64,000 nt of DNA from a virus, in the IMG/VR virus record IMGVR_UViG_3300037423_002564, one strand, 5' to 3'. This document shows, one piece after another, positions 20,690-29,768 of the stretch (the stretch's first letter is position 1; the number at the start of each line of letters is the position of its first letter). The notes below the pieces were generated by a model. It had not been told where the DNA came from and did not search any database. It was given only the letters and a program-made list of their open reading frames with translations. Made by a program: the position numbers and the translations under genes.

Positions 20690-21363
20690 TGGACCAACAG
20701 GATCCGCTCTTGGACTTCGAGGCGCTCAACACGCCGCCGTCGAGCCGCTACATGAGCGTGTACGGCACGATCCCCGAGGGCTACAAGATCGGGGGCACCG
20801 GCCACCGGCCCGATCGCCACCTCGACGTCTACCGGCTGGCCGCCGCCAAGCCCGCGATGCAGGTCATCAAGACCAAGCTGATGGAGATGGCGACGCCCGT
20901 CTTGGACGCCGACAGCTCCCAGCGTATCATCGTCATGAGCGGGATGGGCCCGGGCTTCGACCAGTGGCTCGCCGCGGCGACGCTGTGGCTGAAGAAGGAG
21001 GGCTATCCCTTCGAGCTGTGGATGATCATCCCGTGGAAGGGCTTCGAGTGGCCCCGCTACTGGGCGGAGAACCGCCGCTGGATCGCCGACATGATGGAGA
21101 AGGCGCTGAAGGTCAGCCACCTCACGGACGTCGAGATCCGCAGCACCGACCACGCGGCCCAGACCGTGATGTGCCACGACCGCAACGAGGAGGTGGCGCG
21201 GCTCTCGCAGAAGGCGCTGTCGAGCTGGAGCGGCGCGGAGGCCGGCGGGACGTGGGACACCATCAAGCGGATGCGTTCCTACGGCATCGAGCCGGAGAAC
21301 ATCTACAAGGACGTCTGCGACGCGCTTTTCGGCGCCAAGGCCCCGGCCACGCCGGCAACCTAA
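20689..21363 (+). CDS. YspA/DUF1273-like SLOG-family protein
   Basis: IGGTGHRP, VMSGMGPGFDQWLA, IIPWKGF, DRNEEV, GGTWDTI. Confidence 0.8.
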   Translation: MDQQDPLLDFEALNTPPSSRYMSVYGTIPEGYKIGGTGHRPDRHLDVYRLAAAKPAMQVIKTKLMEMATPVLDADSSQRIIVMSGMGPGFDQWLAAATLWLKKEGYPFELWMIIPWKGFEWPRYWAENRRWIADMMEKALKVSHLTDVEIRSTDHAAQTVMCHDRNEEVARLSQKALSSWSGAEAGGTWDTIKRMRSYGIEPENIYKDVCDALFGAKAPATPAT

Positions 21364-21841: not shown

Positions 21842-22063
21842 TTGCTACGTTTCAACATCAACATCGTCGACTTCGTCATGCTCTGCGCGCTGGCCTTCCT
21901 GGCCTGGCGCGTGGCGGTGGCGGAGGGCGACTGGGCCTGCACCCTGTTCGTCGGCTCGCAGCTCGTCGTCTTCGGCGTGCTGCGGGGCGGCTGGCGGCTG
22001 GTGCAGAACGTGCAGGCGCTGCGCCAGGCGGCCAAGGACGAGCCCCAGGACGGCCAGCCGTGA
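21842..22063 (+). CDS. Small two-TM membrane protein
   Basis: Two hydrophobic segments. Confidence 0.6.
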   Translation: MLRFNINIVDFVMLCALAFLAWRVAVAEGDWACTLFVGSQLVVFGVLRGGWRLVQNVQALRQAAKDEPQDGQP

Positions 22064-22380
22064 CGGAAGCGCCCCAGCACACCCACGTCGTCCTGGAGGT
22101 CGCCGCGCGCCACTGGTGGCAGCACTTCAAGGGCGGCACCTACATGGTGCAGCGCGTCTCCATCCACCACGGCCCGGAGGCCCAGGCCCACCCGCCGGAG
22201 CTGCGCTTCAACGTCCACTACCGGCTGTGGGGCCGCAACGAGGTCCACGAGCGCCCCCTGTGGGAGTGGCTCGACTGGGTGGCGCGCGACGCCTACACCG
22301 GCTGGCGCTTCTGGCCGCATGCGGAGTGGGAGCAGCCGTTCCCCGACGAGCTGCGCCCGCCCAAGGCGCCTACCGTATGA
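22060..22380 (+). CDS. DUF1653-like protein
   Basis: WQHFKGGTYMV..VHYRLW..HERPLWEW. Confidence 0.7.
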   Translation: MTEAPQHTHVVLEVAARHWWQHFKGGTYMVQRVSIHHGPEAQAHPPELRFNVHYRLWGRNEVHERPLWEWLDWVARDAYTGWRFWPHAEWEQPFPDELRPPKAPTV

Positions 22381-22718
22381 GCGGCTACGCCATGAACCTC
22401 GGCACCTGGCGCAAGTGCGCGGGGTGCCGCGGCAAGTACTACCCGGCGGGCTACGTCATGGCGATCGCCGACAGCGGCCGATCCCTCAAGGAGCGGCTGT
22501 GCGTCGAGGGCACCTCCTACACGATGCCGCCCCTGTTCTCGCGCGTGCTGCTGCTCGTACAGAAGAAAGGCAAGGACATCGGCGGGTTCCGGCGTGCGTT
22601 CATCTTTCTGGTCGAGCAGGGCCTCTGGACCACGGTGCTCGTCAACAACCCGCACTACTGCAACGACGCCTGCTCCATCGAGCACGTCATGCGGATGATC
22701 CGCCCGGAGGATCAATGA
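22377..22718 (+). CDS. DSGR-array gene 1 (CxxC..DSGR..CxxxC)
   Basis: CAGC..ADSGR..YCNDAC; ATGA overlaps. Confidence 0.75.
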   Translation: MSGYAMNLGTWRKCAGCRGKYYPAGYVMAIADSGRSLKERLCVEGTSYTMPPLFSRVLLLVQKKGKDIGGFRRAFIFLVEQGLWTTVLVNNPHYCNDACSIEHVMRMIRPEDQ

Positions 22719-23044
22719 CCAAGATCTTCGCGGAGCCGGTGCCCGTGACGCCGGAGCACATGTTCTACGCCACGGACGTCTGCGACGCCTGCCGCAAGAA
22801 GTTCATCCCCAGCGTGACGATCGCCCTGCTCGGCGACAGCGGCCGGGCCCTGGCCGTGTGGGAGAACAAGCCCCTGCTGCACTTCCCGCTCTGGCTCGTG
22901 AAGGCCCATCCCAGCTTCGCCAAGGCGTGCGTGCTGAACTATGCCACGCGCCCGGTGGTCTTCCCCTTCTGGATGGTGCTCGCGGACTACCATCTGGGCT
23001 TCTGCTCCTGGGGGTGCCAGGAGAAGGCGGGGCAGCGCCGATGA
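22715..23044 (+). CDS. DSGR-array gene 2
   Basis: CDAC..GDSGR..FCSWGC. Confidence 0.75.
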   Translation: MTKIFAEPVPVTPEHMFYATDVCDACRKKFIPSVTIALLGDSGRALAVWENKPLLHFPLWLVKAHPSFAKACVLNYATRPVVFPFWMVLADYHLGFCSWGCQEKAGQRR

Positions 23045-23451
23045 GCCAGCTCGCCGTGATGCCCGACCCCTTCTACCGTGACTGCAAGCACTGCAAGCGC
23101 ACCTACCAGCCGATGGTCGAGGTGCAGCTCGTGCGCGACAGCGGCCGGGTGGGCCAGACCTTCTGGGTTGCCGCCAAGTACATGCCGCTGGTCTTCGCGG
23201 AGTACCACCGCCACATCGGGCCGGTCAAGTTCCCCGGGCACTACTACTGGGTGGGCTTCGCGTGGGCCAACCTGGCCGTGCTGCACAAGGGCGCGTGCTC
23301 GGAGGACTGCCAGACGGCGTTCCTGAAGGCCCACTCCGACGCGGCCGACATGCTGGAGATGTTCGAGATGCTGGGCGAGAGCCGCTTCACGCCCCAGAGC
23401 CCGAACATCTACGACGACATCCCGGCCATCCGGCAGAGGATGGGGCGATGA
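23041..23451 (+). CDS. DSGR-array gene 3
   Basis: CKHC..RDSGR..ACSEDC. Confidence 0.75.
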   Translation: MSQLAVMPDPFYRDCKHCKRTYQPMVEVQLVRDSGRVGQTFWVAAKYMPLVFAEYHRHIGPVKFPGHYYWVGFAWANLAVLHKGACSEDCQTAFLKAHSDAADMLEMFEMLGESRFTPQSPNIYDDIPAIRQRMGR

Positions 23452-23690
23452 AGAGCGAGTGGATGACGGAGGCCATGGCGATGGGCAACGGCTTCGCCCA
23501 GCCCAAGGACGTGGTGCGCGTGGTGTGGTTCTGCACCTACTACGGCGTGGCCTACATGAACGAGCCCGGGATGGCGGGGCGCCGATACTTCGCCGACAGC
23601 GGGCGCGGCTTCACACCGAACCTGCCCGGGGCGGTCGACCGCACGGCCCTCTGGGAGCGCGAGAAGGCGCAGATCCGATGGAGGAGATGA
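23448..23690 (+). CDS. DSGR-array gene 4 (no CxxC)
   Basis: RRYFADSGR. Confidence 0.7.
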   Translation: MKSEWMTEAMAMGNGFAQPKDVVRVVWFCTYYGVAYMNEPGMAGRRYFADSGRGFTPNLPGAVDRTALWEREKAQIRWRR

Positions 23691-23890
23691 ACATCGACGT
23701 CGGCGGCCCCGACTTCACGGTCATCAGCCAGTTCTACCAGGTGCCGGAGGGCCATGCGGTGAACTTCGTCCGGGCCACCATCACCATTGAGGGCGAGCCG
23801 GCGCTGGACCCGCTGACGGGTACGCTCTACCATACGGTCAAGCCGGGCGATCGCCGATACCAGCGTGACTCGGGGAGGAAGTTCCGATGA
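23687..23890 (+). CDS. DSGR-array gene 5 (no Cys)
   Basis: RRYQRDSGRKFR at the C-terminus. Confidence 0.7.
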   Translation: MNIDVGGPDFTVISQFYQVPEGHAVNFVRATITIEGEPALDPLTGTLYHTVKPGDRRYQRDSGRKFR

Positions 23891-24144
23891 GCCTCCGTCA
23901 GGTCGGCAGCAGCATCAACCACGAGGTCATCCTCGACGTGCTGCGCGCGGACGCGATGAATCGCCGGCTCCAGCCCTTCCGGCCCGTCGCGCCCGACTTC
24001 CTCTGCGCCGGGTGCGGGCGCCTGGTGGCGTGCGTGGTCAACGAGCACCAGGAGCCCCGCCGGCGCTACTTCACCGACGCCGGCCGCGTCGTCGGCACCT
24101 ACAGCCCGGTCAACGTCTGGCACCACGCCTGCGAGGCCCCCTGA
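23887..24144 (+). CDS. DSGR-array gene 6 (DAGR)
   Basis: CAGC..RRYFTDAGR..HAC. Confidence 0.72.
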   Translation: MSLRQVGSSINHEVILDVLRADAMNRRLQPFRPVAPDFLCAGCGRLVACVVNEHQEPRRRYFTDAGRVVGTYSPVNVWHHACEAP

Positions 24145-24392
24145 TGTCGCGAATTGTAGGCCATTTCAAGTCGGAGCCCGGGCAGGACCTGGTAAACGTC
24201 ATCATGCCGCCCTTGGATGTCACGCAGTTCTGCCCGCAATGCGGGCTCGTGAGCTACCCCTTGAGTGGTTGCCTCGCCACCCGCTTCTTCGTGGACAGCG
24301 GGCGCTGGATGGGCGACCTCTGGTACGGCGGCGAGGGCGCCGACGAGACCTGGTGGAAGCGCGAGCCCCACGTCTGCTGGAGCAACGTCTGA
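24144..24392 (+). CDS. DSGR-array gene 7
   Basis: CPQC..FVDSGR..HVC. Confidence 0.72.
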   Translation: MSRIVGHFKSEPGQDLVNVIMPPLDVTQFCPQCGLVSYPLSGCLATRFFVDSGRWMGDLWYGGEGADETWWKREPHVCWSNV

Positions 24393-24583
24393 TGCCCGGC
24401 TACGTGCTCAAGGACCGGTGGTGGGAGCGCGCTGCCGCGCGCATCGGCAAGTTGACGGTCGTGGAGCTGTGCCCGGCCTGCGGCGCGCTGCACCTCTTCG
24501 ACAGCACCCGCAACAACCTCTGGTCCATCTTCGACAGCGGGCGCGTGGGCGGGCAGGTGCGCTGCCACGAGGTGCCGGCATGA
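24392..24583 (+). CDS. DSGR-array gene 8
   Basis: CPAC..IFDSGR..RCH. Confidence 0.72.
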   Translation: MPGYVLKDRWWERAAARIGKLTVVELCPACGALHLFDSTRNNLWSIFDSGRVGGQVRCHEVPA

Positions 24584-24804
24584 CCGTCGCGCAGTGGCCC
24601 ATCTTCCTCCAGCTCTGCCCCGACTGCGGGGCCATGCACCTATACGCCGAGACGGACGACGAGGCGTTCCAGCTCCACGACTCCGGGCGTGTGGCGAGGC
24701 CGACGCGCTGCGCCCCGTTCTTGGAGCGCTCGCGGGCGGCTTTCGCCTTGTCCCCCACGCCGGCGGAGCGTGCCCGCTGGACGAACCTCTGGAGGACGCC
24801 ATGA
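24580..24804 (+). CDS. DSGR-array gene 9
   Basis: CPDC..LHDSGR..RC. Confidence 0.72.
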   Translation: MTVAQWPIFLQLCPDCGAMHLYAETDDEAFQLHDSGRVARPTRCAPFLERSRAAFALSPTPAERARWTNLWRTP

Positions 24805-25172
24805 GCGCGTTGCCGCCCATCTGCGTGACCCAGACGCATGTCGTCGAGACCGTCACCCAGCGGAACGACCTGCAAGGCGTGCAGGGAGGGGACATCTGCG
24901 TGGTGATGTCCACGGGCCGTAGCTACATTTACGCATCACGGCCGACGACAAGGTGGATCGAGATGGCGAACTTCGAGCCCGAGCCCTTCTACTGCGGCGA
25001 GTGTGGCGGGCTGTATCGCTACCGCACGGGCGACCACGCGCCGGGGCCCAACGACGGCCAGCAGGTCGTGACCGATGGCGATCGCCGCTTGGACCGCGAC
25101 CACGGCTGCCGCTCCGCGCACCCGGACGTCAAGCACGCGCAGCTCACGGAGTTCCTGGGGAGGACCGCATGA
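24801..25172 (+). CDS. DSGR-array gene 10 (degenerate DGDR)
   Basis: CGEC..VTDGDRR..HGC. Confidence 0.68.
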   Translation: MSALPPICVTQTHVVETVTQRNDLQGVQGGDICVVMSTGRSYIYASRPTTRWIEMANFEPEPFYCGECGGLYRYRTGDHAPGPNDGQQVVTDGDRRLDRDHGCRSAHPDVKHAQLTEFLGRTA

Positions 25173-25486
25173 AGCAGAACCACCGCTGGGGCCGCGCCAA
25201 GGGCGTGATCGGCGTCAGCTTCGGCCAGGACTGGATGAAGGACGTCTACATCAACCCACCCTACTCCGCGGACGTGCCAACGGGCACCTTCGAGGCGCAA
25301 CTCTGCCCGGAGTGCGGCATGTGCTGGGAGATAGCGAATATCGGCTCCGTGGAGAGCCCGCAGGTGCGGCTCACGGACGCCGGCCGCCGGCTACCCAGCC
25401 AGCACGGCTGCATCGCCACCCACCCGCTGCGCGAGGCCACGGAGAAGTACGGCGTCTACGTCGACATGTACCGGAGGGGCCTATGA
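25169..25486 (+). CDS. DSGR-array gene 11 (DAGR)
   Basis: CPEC..LTDAGRR..HGC. Confidence 0.72.
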   Translation: MKQNHRWGRAKGVIGVSFGQDWMKDVYINPPYSADVPTGTFEAQLCPECGMCWEIANIGSVESPQVRLTDAGRRLPSQHGCIATHPLREATEKYGVYVDMYRRGL

Positions 25487-25680
25487 GCCTGGCCGTCAAC
25501 CTCGCCCAAGAGGAGGCGCGCCTGACCGGCAGCCGCCGCCCTTACGACCGGATGTGCGTCTGCGGCATCGCCTACCGCCTCTTCCCCGCCCCCCTGTCCG
25601 CCCCGCAGCCGCAGAGCGCGTTCGACTCCGGCCGGCCCGTGCCCATCTGCTGCGACGTCCTGTACCCCATCCTGTTGTGA
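25483..25680 (+). CDS. DSGR-array gene 12
   Basis: CVC..AFDSGR..ICC. Confidence 0.7.
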   Translation: MSLAVNLAQEEARLTGSRRPYDRMCVCGIAYRLFPAPLSAPQPQSAFDSGRPVPICCDVLYPILL

Positions 25681-25686
25681 GGCCCC

Positions 25687-26058
25687 ATGCAGATCCTGAC
25701 CCACAAGAAGCGCTGCGAGCACTGCCGGCGGTTGTACATGCCGATGGTGGAGTACACGCCCCTGGCCGACAGCGGACGGCACATGTACACCAGCAAGGGC
25801 GAGCTGATCGCCGCGCCCGACTTCATCCGGCCGATGTACGGGTACTTCCGCGACCGCACGGAGAACCCGTCCTACGTCTGGGCTGGCGGTCGGTTCATCC
25901 TGGGCGTGGCGCCCAGCAAGGGCTACTGCGGCCTCCTCTGCAAGCGCAACGCCAAGCAGGACCGCGAGCGCAGCCCCTTCGAGGCGGCGATGATGTCGGA
26001 GATGCTGCCCGGGATGGTGAACAACCGGGCCAACCGGCGGGGCGCGGGCTTGTGTTGA
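25687..26058 (+). CDS. DSGR-array gene 13
   Basis: CEHC..LADSGR..YCGLLC. Confidence 0.75.
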   Translation: MQILTHKKRCEHCRRLYMPMVEYTPLADSGRHMYTSKGELIAAPDFIRPMYGYFRDRTENPSYVWAGGRFILGVAPSKGYCGLLCKRNAKQDRERSPFEAAMMSEMLPGMVNNRANRRGAGLC

Positions 26059-26414
26059 GCACGTACCTCAACGATACCGGCAAGTTCGGCACCGAGAAGG
26101 ACCGGGCGCGCTGTGACGGCTGCGGGGACAGCTACCTGCGGGACGGCGGGACCTGGACGATGCTCGACTCCGGCCGGACGGTGCCGCCGCGCTGGCGCCC
26201 GATGGACGAGGTTCTATCCGAAGTGATGTTCTGGGCCATCATCTGGGCGAAGAAGCCGCTCTTCGGCACGCCGTTCCGTGTCAAGGGCATCCCGCTGCCC
26301 TTCGTGAACGTGGAGTTCCATGCGGGCTACTGCTCTGACGCCTGCGAGGACACAGCCCGCCGCGCCGCGGCCTTCCGTCTGGCCGTCATCAACGCTCCTG
26401 GGAGGCAGGCATGA
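26055..26414 (+). CDS. DSGR-array gene 14
   Basis: TTG start (TTGA overlap); CDGC..MLDSGR..KPLFGTPF..YCSDAC. Confidence 0.72.
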   Translation: MSTYLNDTGKFGTEKDRARCDGCGDSYLRDGGTWTMLDSGRTVPPRWRPMDEVLSEVMFWAIIWAKKPLFGTPFRVKGIPLPFVNVEFHAGYCSDACEDTARRAAAFRLAVINAPGRQA

Positions 26415-26719
26415 GCGACTCGATCCTCGCGCACCAGTGCCAACGCTGCGGCAAGGTCTACGACCGGGCGGGCGAGCTTGTGACCGTGACCGACTCCGGC
26501 CGCCCCGTCGTGCGCACGGCGCCCTGGTGCTCCACCATCTGGGCCACCCATGAGGAGAAGAAGAACGCGATGCTGCGCGAGGTCATCGCCACGGGGAAGC
26601 CCATCTTCGGCACGCCCTTCTGGCCCCATGGCCTGGCGCTCGCGCTCGCCGACATCGAGCAGCACCCGGGCTTCTGCTCCGACGCGTGCAGCGCGGCTGC
26701 ACGGAAAGGAACCGCATGA
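26411..26719 (+). CDS. DSGR-array gene 15
   Basis: CQRC..VTDSGR..KPIFGTPF..FCSDAC. Confidence 0.75.
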   Translation: MSDSILAHQCQRCGKVYDRAGELVTVTDSGRPVVRTAPWCSTIWATHEEKKNAMLREVIATGKPIFGTPFWPHGLALALADIEQHPGFCSDACSAAARKGTA

Positions 26720-27171
26720 ACGACATCCCCCGCCTCGACAAGCCGCCGACCCAGATGGTCTGCCGCGAGTGCCAGCAGCCCTTCCGGCGCCAGGTCTCGA
26801 TCGTCTGCCTGTCCGACACGTTCCGGGAGCTGAAGCACACGGAGCGCCTGCTCTACGTGGACACCATGAAGCGCGCGGAGCAGGCGTTCGTGCAAGAGGT
26901 GGCCCGCTCGGCCGAGGGCTTCAAGCTCGGGCCCTACATGTTCGGCATCTGCCTGTACACCCACTGGCGCATCCCCTACCACGGCACCTGCGGCCCCGAC
27001 TGCGAGGCCGCCGTGCTGATGCGCAACCTGCGCCAGACCTCGGGCGCGGACGGCCTGATGAAGCAGCGCGAGGCGCTCTGGTTCCACTGGGACGAGGGCG
27101 CCTACGGCTCCCGGCCCGTGCGATCGCAGAACAGCGCGCCCGCCCTCGTCGACCTGGAGAAGCTGGTATGA
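26716..27171 (+). CDS. DSGR-array gene 16 (degenerate DTFR)
   Basis: CREC..LSDTFR..HGTCGPDC. Confidence 0.68.
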   Translation: MNDIPRLDKPPTQMVCRECQQPFRRQVSIVCLSDTFRELKHTERLLYVDTMKRAEQAFVQEVARSAEGFKLGPYMFGICLYTHWRIPYHGTCGPDCEAAVLMRNLRQTSGADGLMKQREALWFHWDEGAYGSRPVRSQNSAPALVDLEKLV

Positions 27172-27998
27172 CAACCCCCTGCACCAACGAATGCACGATC
27201 ATGACCAGCCGCCAGAAGGAGCTGCGCACGAGCGCCGGCGCCTACCGCGAGATGCTGGTCGAGGCGGTCAAGAAGCTGACGGAGCACGGCATCGACCCGG
27301 GCATCTTCACCATGTTCCTCAACAGCCGCCACGACATCGGCGCGGCCCAGGCCCGCCAGATGATGCTCGACCGCGAGGCGGCGGAGGCCGGGCGCTCGGC
27401 CATCTGGTACTTGGAGCACTACGTCGTCCAGATGCGCAAGGAGCTGGCGCGAAAGGGGCTCTTGGACCCCGCGGACCGCGACGAATACGACGAGCTGGGC
27501 AGCGCCCACCTCGAAGCGATGGAGAAGGTCGCGAAGTACCGGGCGCTCGACGAGACCAAGGGCTTGAGCCACCACCGCGGGGACTTCAGCACGGAGCCGC
27601 TCGCCGGCGCCGACCCGCGGGCCCACGGCCACGCCCAGAAGGTGGCCGCCGCGGCGCGCGCGCTCTTGGCGATGGACGCCTACATCCACCGGTTGCGCCA
27701 GGCGTACTACAGCAACGACCCGGAGGTCCGCTCCAACGCGGACAAGCTGCTCAACCATGTGGGCAGCGAGGCGCTCCAGGACGCGTGGACCGCCTACGCC
27801 CTGTTGGGGATGAACGGCGAGTGGTGCGGCAGCGCCGACCGCCGGCCGACCATCGCCGTGGGTAAGACGCTGATGGAGCGCTGCAAGACCCTGGAAGAGG
27901 CAAACGACCGTCTGGCCGTGGACAACGACGACCTCAAGGCGGAAAACGAGAAGCTGCGGGCAGAGCTGGAGAAGCTGCGGGCGAAGGAGGCGCGATGA
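27168..27998 (+). CDS. Helical protein with C-terminal coiled coil (no DSGR)
   Basis: ATGA overlap; EKLRAELEKLRAKE tail. Confidence 0.65.
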   Translation: MTTPCTNECTIMTSRQKELRTSAGAYREMLVEAVKKLTEHGIDPGIFTMFLNSRHDIGAAQARQMMLDREAAEAGRSAIWYLEHYVVQMRKELARKGLLDPADRDEYDELGSAHLEAMEKVAKYRALDETKGLSHHRGDFSTEPLAGADPRAHGHAQKVAAAARALLAMDAYIHRLRQAYYSNDPEVRSNADKLLNHVGSEALQDAWTAYALLGMNGEWCGSADRRPTIAVGKTLMERCKTLEEANDRLAVDNDDLKAENEKLRAELEKLRAKEAR

Positions 27999-28768
27999 TC
28001 GCGTTCGGCATCGACGTCTCGGGGGCGGCCGGCACCTTGGCCGGGCTGGCCCTCGCGCGCTGGGTCCACGTGGCCTTCATGGCGTGGATGGACCGCAAGC
28101 GCACCCCGGCGCCGGCGATCGCCGAGGAGGGCGCCTTGCCCGAGGAGGAGCAGGAGCGCCTCTTGGTGGCGATGGGCTTCGACCCGGCGCGGGCCCACCA
28201 CATCGTCGAGCTGGCGACGCCCGAGGCGATCGCGGCCATCAAGGCGGAGACGGCGGCCAAGCTCGCGGCCATCGAGCAGGAGACCCAGGCCAAGCTCGCG
28301 GCGATCGAGGAGGAGAAGCAGGCACGGTTCGCGGCGCTCCAAGGAGAGGCGGCGCAGCGCAGCATGGAGCGCTCGCGCAACCTGGACAAGCTGCTGACCA
28401 ACCTCGGCCGCGAGAAGCTGGGGATGGACGCCGAAGGCGGCCAGAGCGCCCAGGCCCTGCACGCCATGATGTCGGAGGCCCGCCACATGCTCGACGAGCA
28501 GACGCAGCGGCACGAGCTGGTGATGGGTCCCTGGCCGGAGGAGGATCGCGGCACGCAGATGTTCTACGGCTTGATGAGCCAGGCGGAGCGGGAGATCATG
28601 GAGGCCATGCGGGTGCCGGACGAGCTGATGAAGACCGCCCGGGTCCAGACGGAGCGTGGCATCCAGCGGACCGCACACGCGCGTGCCATCGAGATCCTGT
28701 GCGAGAACTTCGGCATGCTGCCGACCTCGCCGGAGGAGAAGCTGAAGAAGAGGGGCCCATGGCGCTGA
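27995..28768 (+). CDS. N-terminally membrane-anchored coiled-coil protein (no DSGR)
   Basis: Hydrophobic N-terminus; repeated AKLAAIE. Confidence 0.65.
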   Translation: MIAFGIDVSGAAGTLAGLALARWVHVAFMAWMDRKRTPAPAIAEEGALPEEEQERLLVAMGFDPARAHHIVELATPEAIAAIKAETAAKLAAIEQETQAKLAAIEEEKQARFAALQGEAAQRSMERSRNLDKLLTNLGREKLGMDAEGGQSAQALHAMMSEARHMLDEQTQRHELVMGPWPEEDRGTQMFYGLMSQAEREIMEAMRVPDELMKTARVQTERGIQRTAHARAIEILCENFGMLPTSPEEKLKKRGPWR

Positions 28769-29004
28769 TCACCGACGCGTTCCCGTTCTACGTCTGCTGC
28801 GGCCATCCCTGCGGCAACGTGCTGCCGGACAGCGGGCGCATGGGCACCATGTGTCGGGACTGCCGGCCCCACTTCTACACCGGCAAGACGGAGCGCGGCA
28901 TGGAGTTGCGCGAGACCCGCCAGCACGAGGTCGTCGTCATGGAGTACCTGCCGCGCCGCAAGAAGCCGATCGTCACCCGCGTGCCCCAGGGCCGGTTCGT
29001 GTGA
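28759..29004 (+). CDS. DSGR-array gene 17
   Basis: CCGHPC..LPDSGR..MCRDC. Confidence 0.7.
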   Translation: MALITDAFPFYVCCGHPCGNVLPDSGRMGTMCRDCRPHFYTGKTERGMELRETRQHEVVVMEYLPRRKKPIVTRVPQGRFV

Positions 29005-29348
29005 GCTACGACATGCCGCCGGAGGGGTGGGAGCCGCCGTGCTGCCCGACCTGCGGCGACGAGGTGGAAGAAGACGGCAGCGACACCACGAGCTGGGGCA
29101 TCTGCTTCGCCTGCGAGCGCGAGGGGATGCTACCCACCCAGCTCCCGCCCGACCTCTGCTCGGGCTGCGCGCGTCCGCTGGCGGACTCCGGCCGCGAGCT
29201 GTACCTCTGCCGGCGCTGCATCGACCGCAGCAAGAAACTGCGCATGGGCCCGGAGGGCAAGGCGGTCGTGGAGTACGAGATCCTCTGGGCGCCGGGCCGC
29301 GAGAGCCGGCTGCTCATGCTGGGGATCGCCGGCCGCCCCCGCGTATAG
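29001..29348 (+). CDS. DSGR-array gene 18
   Basis: GTGA overlap; CPTC..CFAC..CSGC..LADSGR..LCRRC. Confidence 0.72.
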   Translation: MSYDMPPEGWEPPCCPTCGDEVEEDGSDTTSWGICFACEREGMLPTQLPPDLCSGCARPLADSGRELYLCRRCIDRSKKLRMGPEGKAVVEYEILWAPGRESRLLMLGIAGRPRV

Positions 29349-29360
29349 ACGCAGCTTCGC

Positions 29361-29386
29361 CCGGGGTCGCCTGTGGGTGGCCCCGG
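29361..29386 (+). terminator. Hairpin closing the small-gene operon
   Basis: CCGGGGTCGCC-TGTG-GGTGGCCCCGG; weak U-tract. Confidence 0.45.
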
Positions 29387-29407
29387 ACTTCGTGATGTAA
29401 CGGCCCG

Positions 29408-29437
29408 TTGGTCGGACCGTCCTATCCATATAATACC
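29408..29437 (+). promoter_or_regulatory. Operator plus -10 promoter for the tail region
   Basis: TTGGTCGGACC 29408-29418 and TCCATATAATACC 29425-29437. Confidence 0.7.
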
Positions 29438-29465
29438 ACTGTCCAAGGGACTTGTGGAGGGTGGG

Positions 29466-29768
29466 ATGAGCGCCAACAAGTTGACCGTAGCGCAGCTCGC
29501 TACCATCGGGGTTGCCGTGAACGGCGGTCCCGTCAACGCCGGCGTCCAGTTCCAGGTGCCCGAGTCCCAGCAAGAGGTCATCGAGGTCAACCGCTACGGC
29601 ATCGTGACCGCCAAGGGCCCCGGCGCGGCCGTGGTCCTGGCGCACGACCCGCAGGCGATCCTCGTGGATGCGCCCATCTTCGTGGTGCGCAAGACCGCCC
29701 AGGCCCAATACGAGGAAGACGTCCGCAACGGGCTGGTGAAGCCCCGCACCGTCTTCTCGCCGCTGTAG
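29466..29768 (+). CDS. Small Ig-like (Big_2-type) structural protein
   Basis: VIEVNRYGIVTAKGPGAAVVLA. Confidence 0.55.
   Translation: MSANKLTVAQLATIGVAVNGGPVNAGVQFQVPESQQEVIEVNRYGIVTAKGPGAAVVLAHDPQAILVDAPIFVVRKTAQAQYEEDVRNGLVKPRTVFSPL

Follow-up and report, generated by a model that had tools for sequence, protein, structure and literature searches.

A tandem array of small, zinc-finger-like genes sharing a DSGR turn in a large soil phage

In the virus genome IMGVR_UViG_3300037423_002564 (IMG/VR), a complete single-contig record of 203,733 bp with 67.6% GC and direct terminal repeats, we analyzed a stretch of 64,000 nucleotides (bases 15088-79087 of the record), hereafter called the window, whose numbering is used unless the genome is named. 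Positions 22377-29348 of this 64-kb window hold 18 co-directional genes, numbered here g01 to g18 in their order, which encode proteins of 63-151 amino acids (aa), mostly overlap one another, and share the four-residue motif Asp-Ser-Gly-Arg (DSGR) or a variant of it. By their sequences the 18 genes appear to be diverged paralogs that share an N-terminal module, made of a CxxC knuckle, one or more β-strands, and the DSGR turn, with three different completions. The array would then be the principal site of a multigene family that is specific to its lineage and arose by tandem duplication, and none of Pfam, PHROGs, and NCBIfam describes this family. As to its role, we favor, with a probability of roughly 0.4, a set of fast-evolving binders in which the invariant hairpin serves as a shared contact surface and the variable parts set specificity.

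Recurrence of the motif, coding evidence, and turnover

Fourteen of the 18 proteins carry exact DSGR, two carry DAGR (g06 and g11), and one each has DGDR (g10) and DTFR (g16), which agrees with the tally of an earlier reading made from the letters of the window (the sequence-only reading). Under the motif, serine is encoded by AGC eight times, by TCC five times, and by TCG once, i.e., by both Ser codon families, while glycine is encoded by GGC, GGG, or GGA and arginine by CGC, CGG, CGA, CGT, or AGG. This synonymous variation bears out the earlier view that the constraint acts on the protein. When residues were shuffled within each protein 20,000 times, DSGR arose in at most 2 of the 18 proteins. 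The predicted proteome (61,257 residues) contains 21 copies of DSGR, with ~0.9 expected, and 14 of the 27 copies found by six-frame counting in the 204-kb genome lie inside the 7-kb array. Recurrence of the motif by chance is excluded.

At 68% GC, all six frames of this DNA stay open over long stretches, and genes were therefore called by GC content at the third codon position (GC3). Since high-GC DNA yields many long spurious open reading frames, the frames of the array might be artefacts of this kind, or might go untranslated, the repeat being a DNA or RNA element. However, GC3 was 0.87-0.97 in frame for all 18 genes, compared with ~0.45-0.75 in other frames or upstream of the start. A strain variant from a Joint Genome Institute metagenome (L004) was 91-95% identical across the array (other contigs, 99-99.6%), and against this 93%-identical strain the per-gene ratio of non-synonymous to synonymous substitution rates (dN/dS) ranged from 0 to 0.61, well below 1. 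For g05 we counted 0 non-synonymous and 6 synonymous differences, and for g17, 0 and 5. The use of both Ser codon families and the retention of the protein motif at 20-30% identity in other phages likewise argue for translation. The array genes are coding and under purifying selection, and the untranslated alternative is effectively refuted; GC3 and junction inspection also confirm the number, sizes, positions, and overlapping junctions of the 18 genes as first proposed.

The sequence-only reading had described the proteins as largely unalignable, which turned out to be wrong. All-against-all BLAST ties the array proteins together, and pairwise BLAST combined with profiles gives three related classes; the closest pairs are usually neighbors, as expected from tandem duplication. 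Class A (g01, g02, g03, and g13-g16) reads CxxC, 14 residues, DSGR, 49-59 residues, and [FY]-C-S/G-x-x-C. In class B (g06-g12), CxxC is followed after 15-24 residues by DSGR and then, within 4-26 (usually 6-9) residues, by a Cys, often with a His; g04 and g05 are Cys-poor relatives on the class B side. Class C (g17 and g18) has C-x2-3-C, five residues (L-P), DSGR, four residues, and CxxC; the ribbon of g18 reads C-x2-C-x5-DSGR-x4-C-x2-C, and the class C pattern is found in five relatives too. Two Cys knuckles thus surround a short hairpin in class C, an arrangement that marks its members as putative zinc ribbons. When the profiles of classes A and B were compared (hhalign, A3 versus A4), the segment from knuckle to DSGR aligned with 86% probability and an E value of 5e-6.

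Over 47 members from four phage lineages, which were partly recognized by the motif itself, Asp is kept in 47/47, Arg in 47/47, Gly in 41/47, and Ser in 35/47, with Ala, Gly, Thr, or Asn at the Ser position in the other 12. D and R persist in distant homologs, in line with the conservation that the sequence-only reading had expected of related phages. The motif is also retained where zinc ligands are lost, namely, in g04 (one Cys, no CxxC), in g05 (no Cys, with DSGR near the C terminus at residues 64-67 of 70), and in a relative of g05 from another lineage (L010:26-238). Retention of D and R in such proteins would place the tip under stronger constraint than the metal site.

The array is subject to marked turnover. 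Compared with L004, the proteins of g01, g06, g07, and g10 diverge by 18-40%, while their neighbors diverge by 3-5%; for g01, amino acid divergence is 31% and dS is 0.58. Because dS is raised in these four genes as well (0.2-0.64 versus 0.05-0.18), this divergence suggests that more distant alleles have replaced the local ones by recombination, and it looks less like positive selection. In g10 the variable part is the N-terminal half; mid2, one of two non-family genes within the array, diverges to the same extent (18-40%) in its C-terminal third. Two motifs read differently in L004 (g06, DSGR in place of DAGR; g07, DSDR in place of DSGR). Mosaic stretches relative to L004 were seen at 22377-22718, 23887-24392, 24801-25000, and 28490-28720. 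Between phages, flanking genes are 35-64% identical but the DSGR genes only 24-37%, mostly without one-to-one partners, and one related lineage (L013) lacks the class B block. Such comparisons indicate that the family probably undergoes birth-and-death evolution, and its evolution, much faster than that of the flanks, fits an accessory, host-interaction role.

The DSGR turn and its possible functions

We then considered where the motif sits in the protein. A hydrophobic strand always precedes DSGR, and every array gene except g04 and g05 (i.e., 16 of 18) has a CxxC-type knuckle upstream of it. The surrounding pattern, phi-x-D-[SA]-G-R-x-phi, has a hydrophobic residue at position -2 in 34/47 members (Leu, Val, Phe, Tyr, or Ile) and at +2 in 35/47, and reads as the signature of a two-strand hairpin. 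AlphaFold2 models were made for class A, using g15 (25-sequence alignment; mean predicted local distance difference test [pLDDT] 70, core blocks 82-92), and for class B, using g08 (16-sequence alignment; pLDDT 72). The g15 model runs from a strand through the knuckle C10/C13 and strands 16-18 and 21-26 to DSGR at 28-31, followed by a poorly defined insert of ~50 aa with two helices, a strand at 78-83, and the ligands C89, just ahead of helix 91-101, and C93, in the first turn of this helix. In the g08 model, a helix and a strand lead to the knuckle C27/C30, strands 33-37 and 42-46, DSGR at 48-51, a strand at 52-55, and C58/H59. In both, DSGR forms a tight turn directly after a β-strand, and in class B a return strand follows the turn. 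Fold searches with the two models (Foldseek and VIA-align) gave nothing significant; for g08, the matches were only generic β-meanders and propeller blades (Z ≤ 4.2).

According to the g08 model, and to the ligand pattern of class C, DSGR would be the tip of a hairpin whose base is clamped by a metal site; in class C, it would lie between the two knuckles, at the hairpin end away from the metal. In class A, the g15 model makes it the turn from which the insert leaves. Since the motif would be a hairpin tip in classes B and C and an insert exit point in class A, the turn is expected to be exposed. These observations speak against the earlier proposal of a portable docking peptide on unrelated scaffolds: DSGR always follows a strand, the knuckle is nearly always upstream, and classes A and B align. 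Short linear motifs are unstructured and independent of fold, whereas a strand precedes DSGR in both models. The sequence-only reading had also named an outcome that would tell against it, a buried β-turn of one ordinary fold shared by all members. One part of this comes close to what we found, since there seems to be one shared module; the other does not, since exposure of the turn is expected.

In the mechanism that we favor, the module would consist of a CxxC knuckle, one or two β-strands, the turn D-[SA]-G-R, and a return strand. In class A, it would be completed by an insert of ~50-60 aa leading to a [FY]CSxxC helix, in a treble-clef pattern like that of TRASH/eL24/YacG fingers; in class B, by a single Cys or His soon after the turn; and in class C, by a second CxxC, giving a zinc ribbon. 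One long operon would supply diversified small binders, in which the invariant hairpin would contact a common class of ligand (a host protein, a phage protein, or nucleic acid), with the variable inserts and termini setting individual specificity. We favor a shared contact because D and R outlast the zinc ligands, because Arg is conserved in more members than Gly, a residue with special conformational properties, and because the turnover resembles that of host-interaction gene families. If the hairpin is indeed a shared contact, the arrays would amount to a compact natural library of zinc-stabilized binders against one cellular machine, and would offer a tractable entry into host takeover by large soil phages.

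Several points weigh against this reading. No RNA runs containing the phage were found, a negative on the side of expression. Both models are of moderate confidence (pLDDT 70-72) and come from shallow paralog alignments, and exposure of the turn was inferred from its position, not read from coordinates. The profile links of class C are weak (40% to class A and 2% to class B). In addition, a D-x-G-[KR] turn is a common self-stabilizing hairpin element (eL24 has NDGR, TRASH/YHS has G-K, and the Asp-box has D-x-G), and its conservation could therefore be structural.

This last point leads to a different explanation, which we regard as quite possible though short of probable, namely, that DSGR is a purely structural turn inherited from an ancestral finger, in members whose functions are unrelated and which have no common partner. 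Asp would cap the turn, Gly would adopt a left-handed conformation, and Arg would pair with Asp. A short protein with few core residues relies heavily on the stability of its turns, and the placement of DSGR in a tight turn after a strand in both models, with the return strand of class B, is what such a role would produce; so is the replacement of Gly in only 6/47 members. The best, albeit non-significant, PDB profile matches are to archaeal eL24, where a turn NDGR is followed by FCSxKC. Conversely, stability should depend more on the zinc ligands than on D and R, yet D and R are the better kept, and Arg is more conserved than Gly, whose conformational role is the clearest. Turns of this kind usually tolerate exchange of D for N and R for K, yet 0 of the 47 members, recognized in part by the motif, show either exchange.

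A narrower version of the contact idea holds that the DSGR hairpin is a docking tip or plug for a single host or phage machine, with the ~24-30 paralogs acting as a modular adaptor toolkit that would recruit different targets to this machine or tune it in different ways. Its logic may be likened to that of the acidic hairpin of TFIIS-type zinc ribbons, which enters RNA polymerase, or to that of the F-box in viral adaptors. We consider this version unlikely; if true, it would be a modular adaptor system not described in phages.

Members might instead be sequence-specific nucleic-acid-binding factors for the transcription program of the phage RNA polymerase, either transcription factors or structural proteins that bind DNA or RNA, with an Asp-buttressed Arg of the hairpin contacting nucleic acid. 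The eL24 and FCS/MYM fingers are nucleic-acid binders, 11 of the 18 members are net positive, and the phage encodes a fused β-β′ RNA polymerase; the zinc ribbons of Bacillus phage G provide a precedent (PMC7824862). Against it, g05, g07, g10, and g18 are acidic and g09 is neutral, net charges are small, and the isoelectric points are mixed (4.8-9.6), which tells mildly against binding factors and argues against a uniform nucleic-acid-coating role. An invariant Asp would be unusual at a tip that contacts nucleic acid, no helix-turn-helix or other DNA-binding signature was found, and tblastn with g15, the only member tried, gave no match at E ≤ 1 in 50,697 annotated phage records. We regard such a role as distinctly unlikely.

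Lastly, the motif could be a site of modification or processing, such as Arg ADP-ribosylation, Ser phosphorylation, or recognition by a phage protease. The invariance of Arg and Asp would suit such a site. The sequence-only reading had raised the serine as a modification site, and its replacement in 12/47 members means that Ser is not an obligatory target; a tight β-turn held by zinc would probably make a poor protease substrate, and no modifying enzyme was found in or beside the array. We therefore see very little chance that this explanation is correct, and return to the invariant hairpin as a contact surface as the reading that we prefer.

Organization of the array, its setting, and relatives elsewhere

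All genes of the array are on the plus strand and join by ATGA, TGATG, GTGA, or TTGA overlaps, except that 6 nt separate g13 from g12 and that g17 overlaps mid2 by 10 nt. The family is taken to be translationally coupled. Three class A genes come first: g01 (22377-22718; 113 aa; GC3 0.93), with the pattern CxxC-x14-DSGR-x59-CxxxC; g02 (22715-23044; 109 aa; GC3 0.95), which matches g03 by BLAST at E 1e-5 over 89 aa; and g03 itself (23041-23451; 136 aa; GC3 0.97), which matches g13 at E 1e-6. They are followed by the Cys-poor pair. The class B relative g04 (23448-23690; 80 aa; GC3 0.94) lacks a zinc knuckle and is linked to g07 at E 1.4e-4 over 65 aa, while g05 (23678-23890; 70 aa; GC3 0.87), whose start could alternatively be 23687, giving an ATGA overlap, matches its L010 relative at E 3e-4.

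The class B block comprises g06 (23887-24144; 85 aa; DAGR), with a relative at L010:898-1161 (37% identity, E 6e-15); g07 (24144-24392; 82 aa; DSGR); the modeled g08 (24392-24583; 63 aa), which matches g09 (24580-24804; 74 aa) at E 1e-10; g10 (24801-25172; 123 aa; DGDR), which matches g11 (25169-25486; 105 aa; DAGR) at E 9e-7; and the class B-like g12 (25483-25680; 65 aa), arranged as CxC ... DSGR ... CC. Class A then resumes with g13 (25687-26058; 123 aa), a strain variant of which is P0002; g14 (26052-26414; 120 aa), starting at GTG 26052 or TTG 26055; the modeled g15 (26411-26719; 102 aa), which is 38% identical to g14 (E 1e-17); and g16 (26716-27171; 151 aa), where the motif has degenerated to DTFR with D and R kept in class A alignments.

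Two non-family genes are embedded here, in a position conserved in L013 and L010. The first, mid1 (27168-27998; 276 aa), has a C-terminal coiled coil, leucine-zipper-type Pfam matches below cut-off, and homologs at 59% identity in L010 and 34% in L013; the second, mid2 (27995-28768; 257 aa), has a hydrophobic N terminus and then a long alanine/glutamate-rich stretch. Both may work together with the family. A predicted complex of g16 and mid1, the single pair tried, scored 0.00 with low-confidence folds and is evidence neither for nor against this. Class C closes the array with g17 (28759-29004; 81 aa), a zinc-ribbon pattern of C-x3-C-x5-DSGR-x4-CxxC with relatives in L013 and L010, and g18 (29001-29348; 115 aa), which carries an extra N-terminal CxxC-x16-CxxC ribbon, has a relative at L013:16099-16434 (E 1e-10), and matches Pfam DZR_2 below cut-off (E 0.011).

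The array lies within a long co-directional gene block and was read as a single operon because no promoter-like or terminator-like sites were found between ~18.9 and 29.35 kb. Upstream are SSB, DUF1292, YpsA-SLOG, and DUF1653-like genes. Of these, the YpsA/SLOG-family gene (20710-21363) and the DUF1653-like gene (22060-22380; 106 aa; below the Pfam cut-off) adjoin the 5′ side of the array, and the pair keeps the same order in L013. Downstream are structural genes, Ig/F5-F8-type and tail-fiber-like. After the array there is a single intergenic gap of appreciable size, at 29349-29516. It contains a palindrome at 29410 and a minus-strand promoter-like match (29458-29430), and probably separates the array operon from the structural genes. 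The nearest annotated relatives of the phage RNA polymerase, at ~32% identity, are from Salmonella phage Arash and Vibrio phages D181, D148, and D69. No tRNA genes were found in the 203,733-bp genome, and DNA of the phage is present in soil and rhizosphere metagenomes.

Outside the array, hidden Markov models (HMMs) built from window members only, together with pattern inspection, gave one robust member (genome 168914-169264, E 3e-6) and four to five probable ones: weaker HMM matches at 155143, 167118, and 155501, and matches by pattern at 155737 and 168598 (DVGNR). Cys-less candidates came up in addition. In all, ~8-10% of the genes of this complete 204-kb phage would belong to one undescribed family, in which a four-residue hairpin turn is the one invariant trait and persists in members without a zinc site. 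A looser second locus of family members lies at genome 155143-156051 (L001:1144-2052) and 166759-169264 (L002:759-3264). The motifs there are DGGR at 155143, DSGR at 155501, 155737, 167118, and 168914, and DVGNR at 168598, with DTGR in a Cys-less protein at 166759; GC3 is below that of the main array, and two genes seem to overlap by ~100 nt. The DSGR hairpin motif also occurs inside a large protein of 676 aa on the minus strand (genome 126147-128177; L003:648-2678), as an internal zinc-ribbon-like segment, C-x4-C-x12-DSGR-x7-CxxC. A guess that this protein is a portal was dropped, as Pfam and PHROGs support no name for it.

An exhaustive profile search of 1.84 billion representative proteins returned only 17 matches at E ≤ 0.001. 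Seven of these were more-distant metagenomic proteins (P0010-P0016) at 20-30% identity, all of which keep CxxC ... DSGR or DSDR ... CSxxC. Similar arrays, which the sequence-only reading had suggested looking for, were found in three further metagenomic phage lineages, with 11 members in L013, 9 in L010, and 4 in L011. The L013 contig (40.8 kb, 67% GC) is syntenic with the window from the SSB gene to a 547-aa structural gene. Megablast of the array against the phage collection found no relatives, nor were relatives of mid1 found in the viral contig collection or arrays by alignment-based search of metagenome contigs.

Three candidates were rejected. An apparent fusion of class A with mid1 in L010 (1957-3147, called as 396 aa) has the class A C terminus, GFCxxxC and a stop, in another frame, with a switch in GC3; the join reflects a frameshift, an error of assembly, or a pseudogene, and not a true fusion. 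P0017 (776 aa, secreted) and P0018 (a repeat protein) both scored against the class A profile, P0017 through the motif alone, but were judged chance motif matches because they lack the knuckle-hairpin-CSxxC architecture and their Pfam matches are unrelated to zinc fingers. P0017, a metagenomic protein from another source, has ~10 repeats of 60 aa, each with GAADSGRTYxVAGGAPL and with Cys pairs arranged differently, and may have come to use this hairpin sequence independently, in a different, non-zinc repeat.

Relation to known families

The sequence-only reading had not recognized the family, and our searches agree: no match above threshold was found in Pfam, PHROGs, or NCBIfam. With hmmscan, the 18 proteins gave no TRASH/eL24-type match (PF01246, PF04945) at E ≤ 1; PF01246 (Ribosomal_L24e), PF04945 (YHS), and PF03884 (YacG) had no match in the whole genome at E ≤ 10; and the literature on a "DSGR motif" and on TRASH domains in phages yielded nothing relevant. 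The family can now be searched for by the signature CxxC - strand - D[SA]GR.

Class A nonetheless resembles the treble clef of TRASH/eL24/MYM-FCS/YacG fingers, with a CxxC knuckle, a hairpin ending in DSGR, and a helix starting [FY]-C-S-x-x-C. Archaeal eL24 reads C-x2-C ... V-R-N-D-G-R-V-L-F-F-C-S-R-K-C, both halves of which align in order to the class A profile, and it was among the top PDB profile matches of A1 and A3, though at E values of only 0.12-0.19. YacG showed a weak structural likeness at Z 2.4 (root-mean-square deviation 2.4 Å over 37 residues, 27% identity), TRASH and MYM rows appeared in AFDB at E about 1, and an L24e/zf-FCS cluster appeared in Atlas with TM 0.45 by the match. 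The g15 model, at pLDDT 70, has a candidate treble-clef order of knuckle, hairpin, and helix with the last two ligands. In contrast, class A knuckles are 67-77 residues apart (C13 to C89 in g15), compared with 19-22 in TRASH/eL24, because the turn and the CSxxC helix are separated by an insert of 50-60 aa. The YacG finger is C-x2-C-x15-C-x3-C and is recognized by PF03884, neither of which applies to the family; classes B and C have other ligand sets, without a C-x3-C of TRASH/eL24 type; and D and R are invariant in the DSGR family but not across TRASH-type fingers. The DSGR family also differs in being present as ~24-30 paralogs in one phage. The likeness is weak but recurrent, and membership in the TRASH, eL24, or YacG families is not demonstrated. 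It does suggest that fingers of this kind have long had a D-x-G-[KR] turn.

Two further systems resemble the array in part. The Asp-box, said to have been described by Copley et al. in 2001, is reportedly a β-hairpin of the form S-x-D-x-G-x-T-W found in different folds. As in DSGR, Asp and Gly stand two apart at the turn, often with Lys or Arg after them, and there are many copies; unlike the Asp-box, the DSGR family has no Ser at -2 and no Thr-Trp after Arg, and appears as a zinc finger, not a β-propeller. In poxvirus ankyrin/F-box-like proteins, a conserved docking element is paired with variable target-binding parts. There too, numerous rapidly evolving paralogs combine a short invariant element with variable remainders, and the sequence-only reading had worked from a model of this sort. 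The likeness here is of logic only, as DSGR would be part of a folded core module and not a separate domain.

The closest parallel is Bacillus phage G, in which a lineage-specific zinc-ribbon expansion of ~35 copies has been suggested to comprise transcription factors or DNA-binding proteins (Iyer et al. 2021, PMC7824862). Both are jumbo phages with many small zinc-finger paralogs, and the copy number here, 18 in the array plus others, is of the same kind. They differ in that no sequence relation is detectable (tblastn with g15 only), that host range and phage lineage are not the same, ours being a soil phage of high GC that encodes its own RNA polymerase, and that a DSGR turn is unreported for phage G. 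Even if the turn is structural, jumbo phages would have in this array, after phage G, their second clear case of massive zinc-finger expansion. We class it as a lineage-specific expansion of this kind rather than as a categorically new system.

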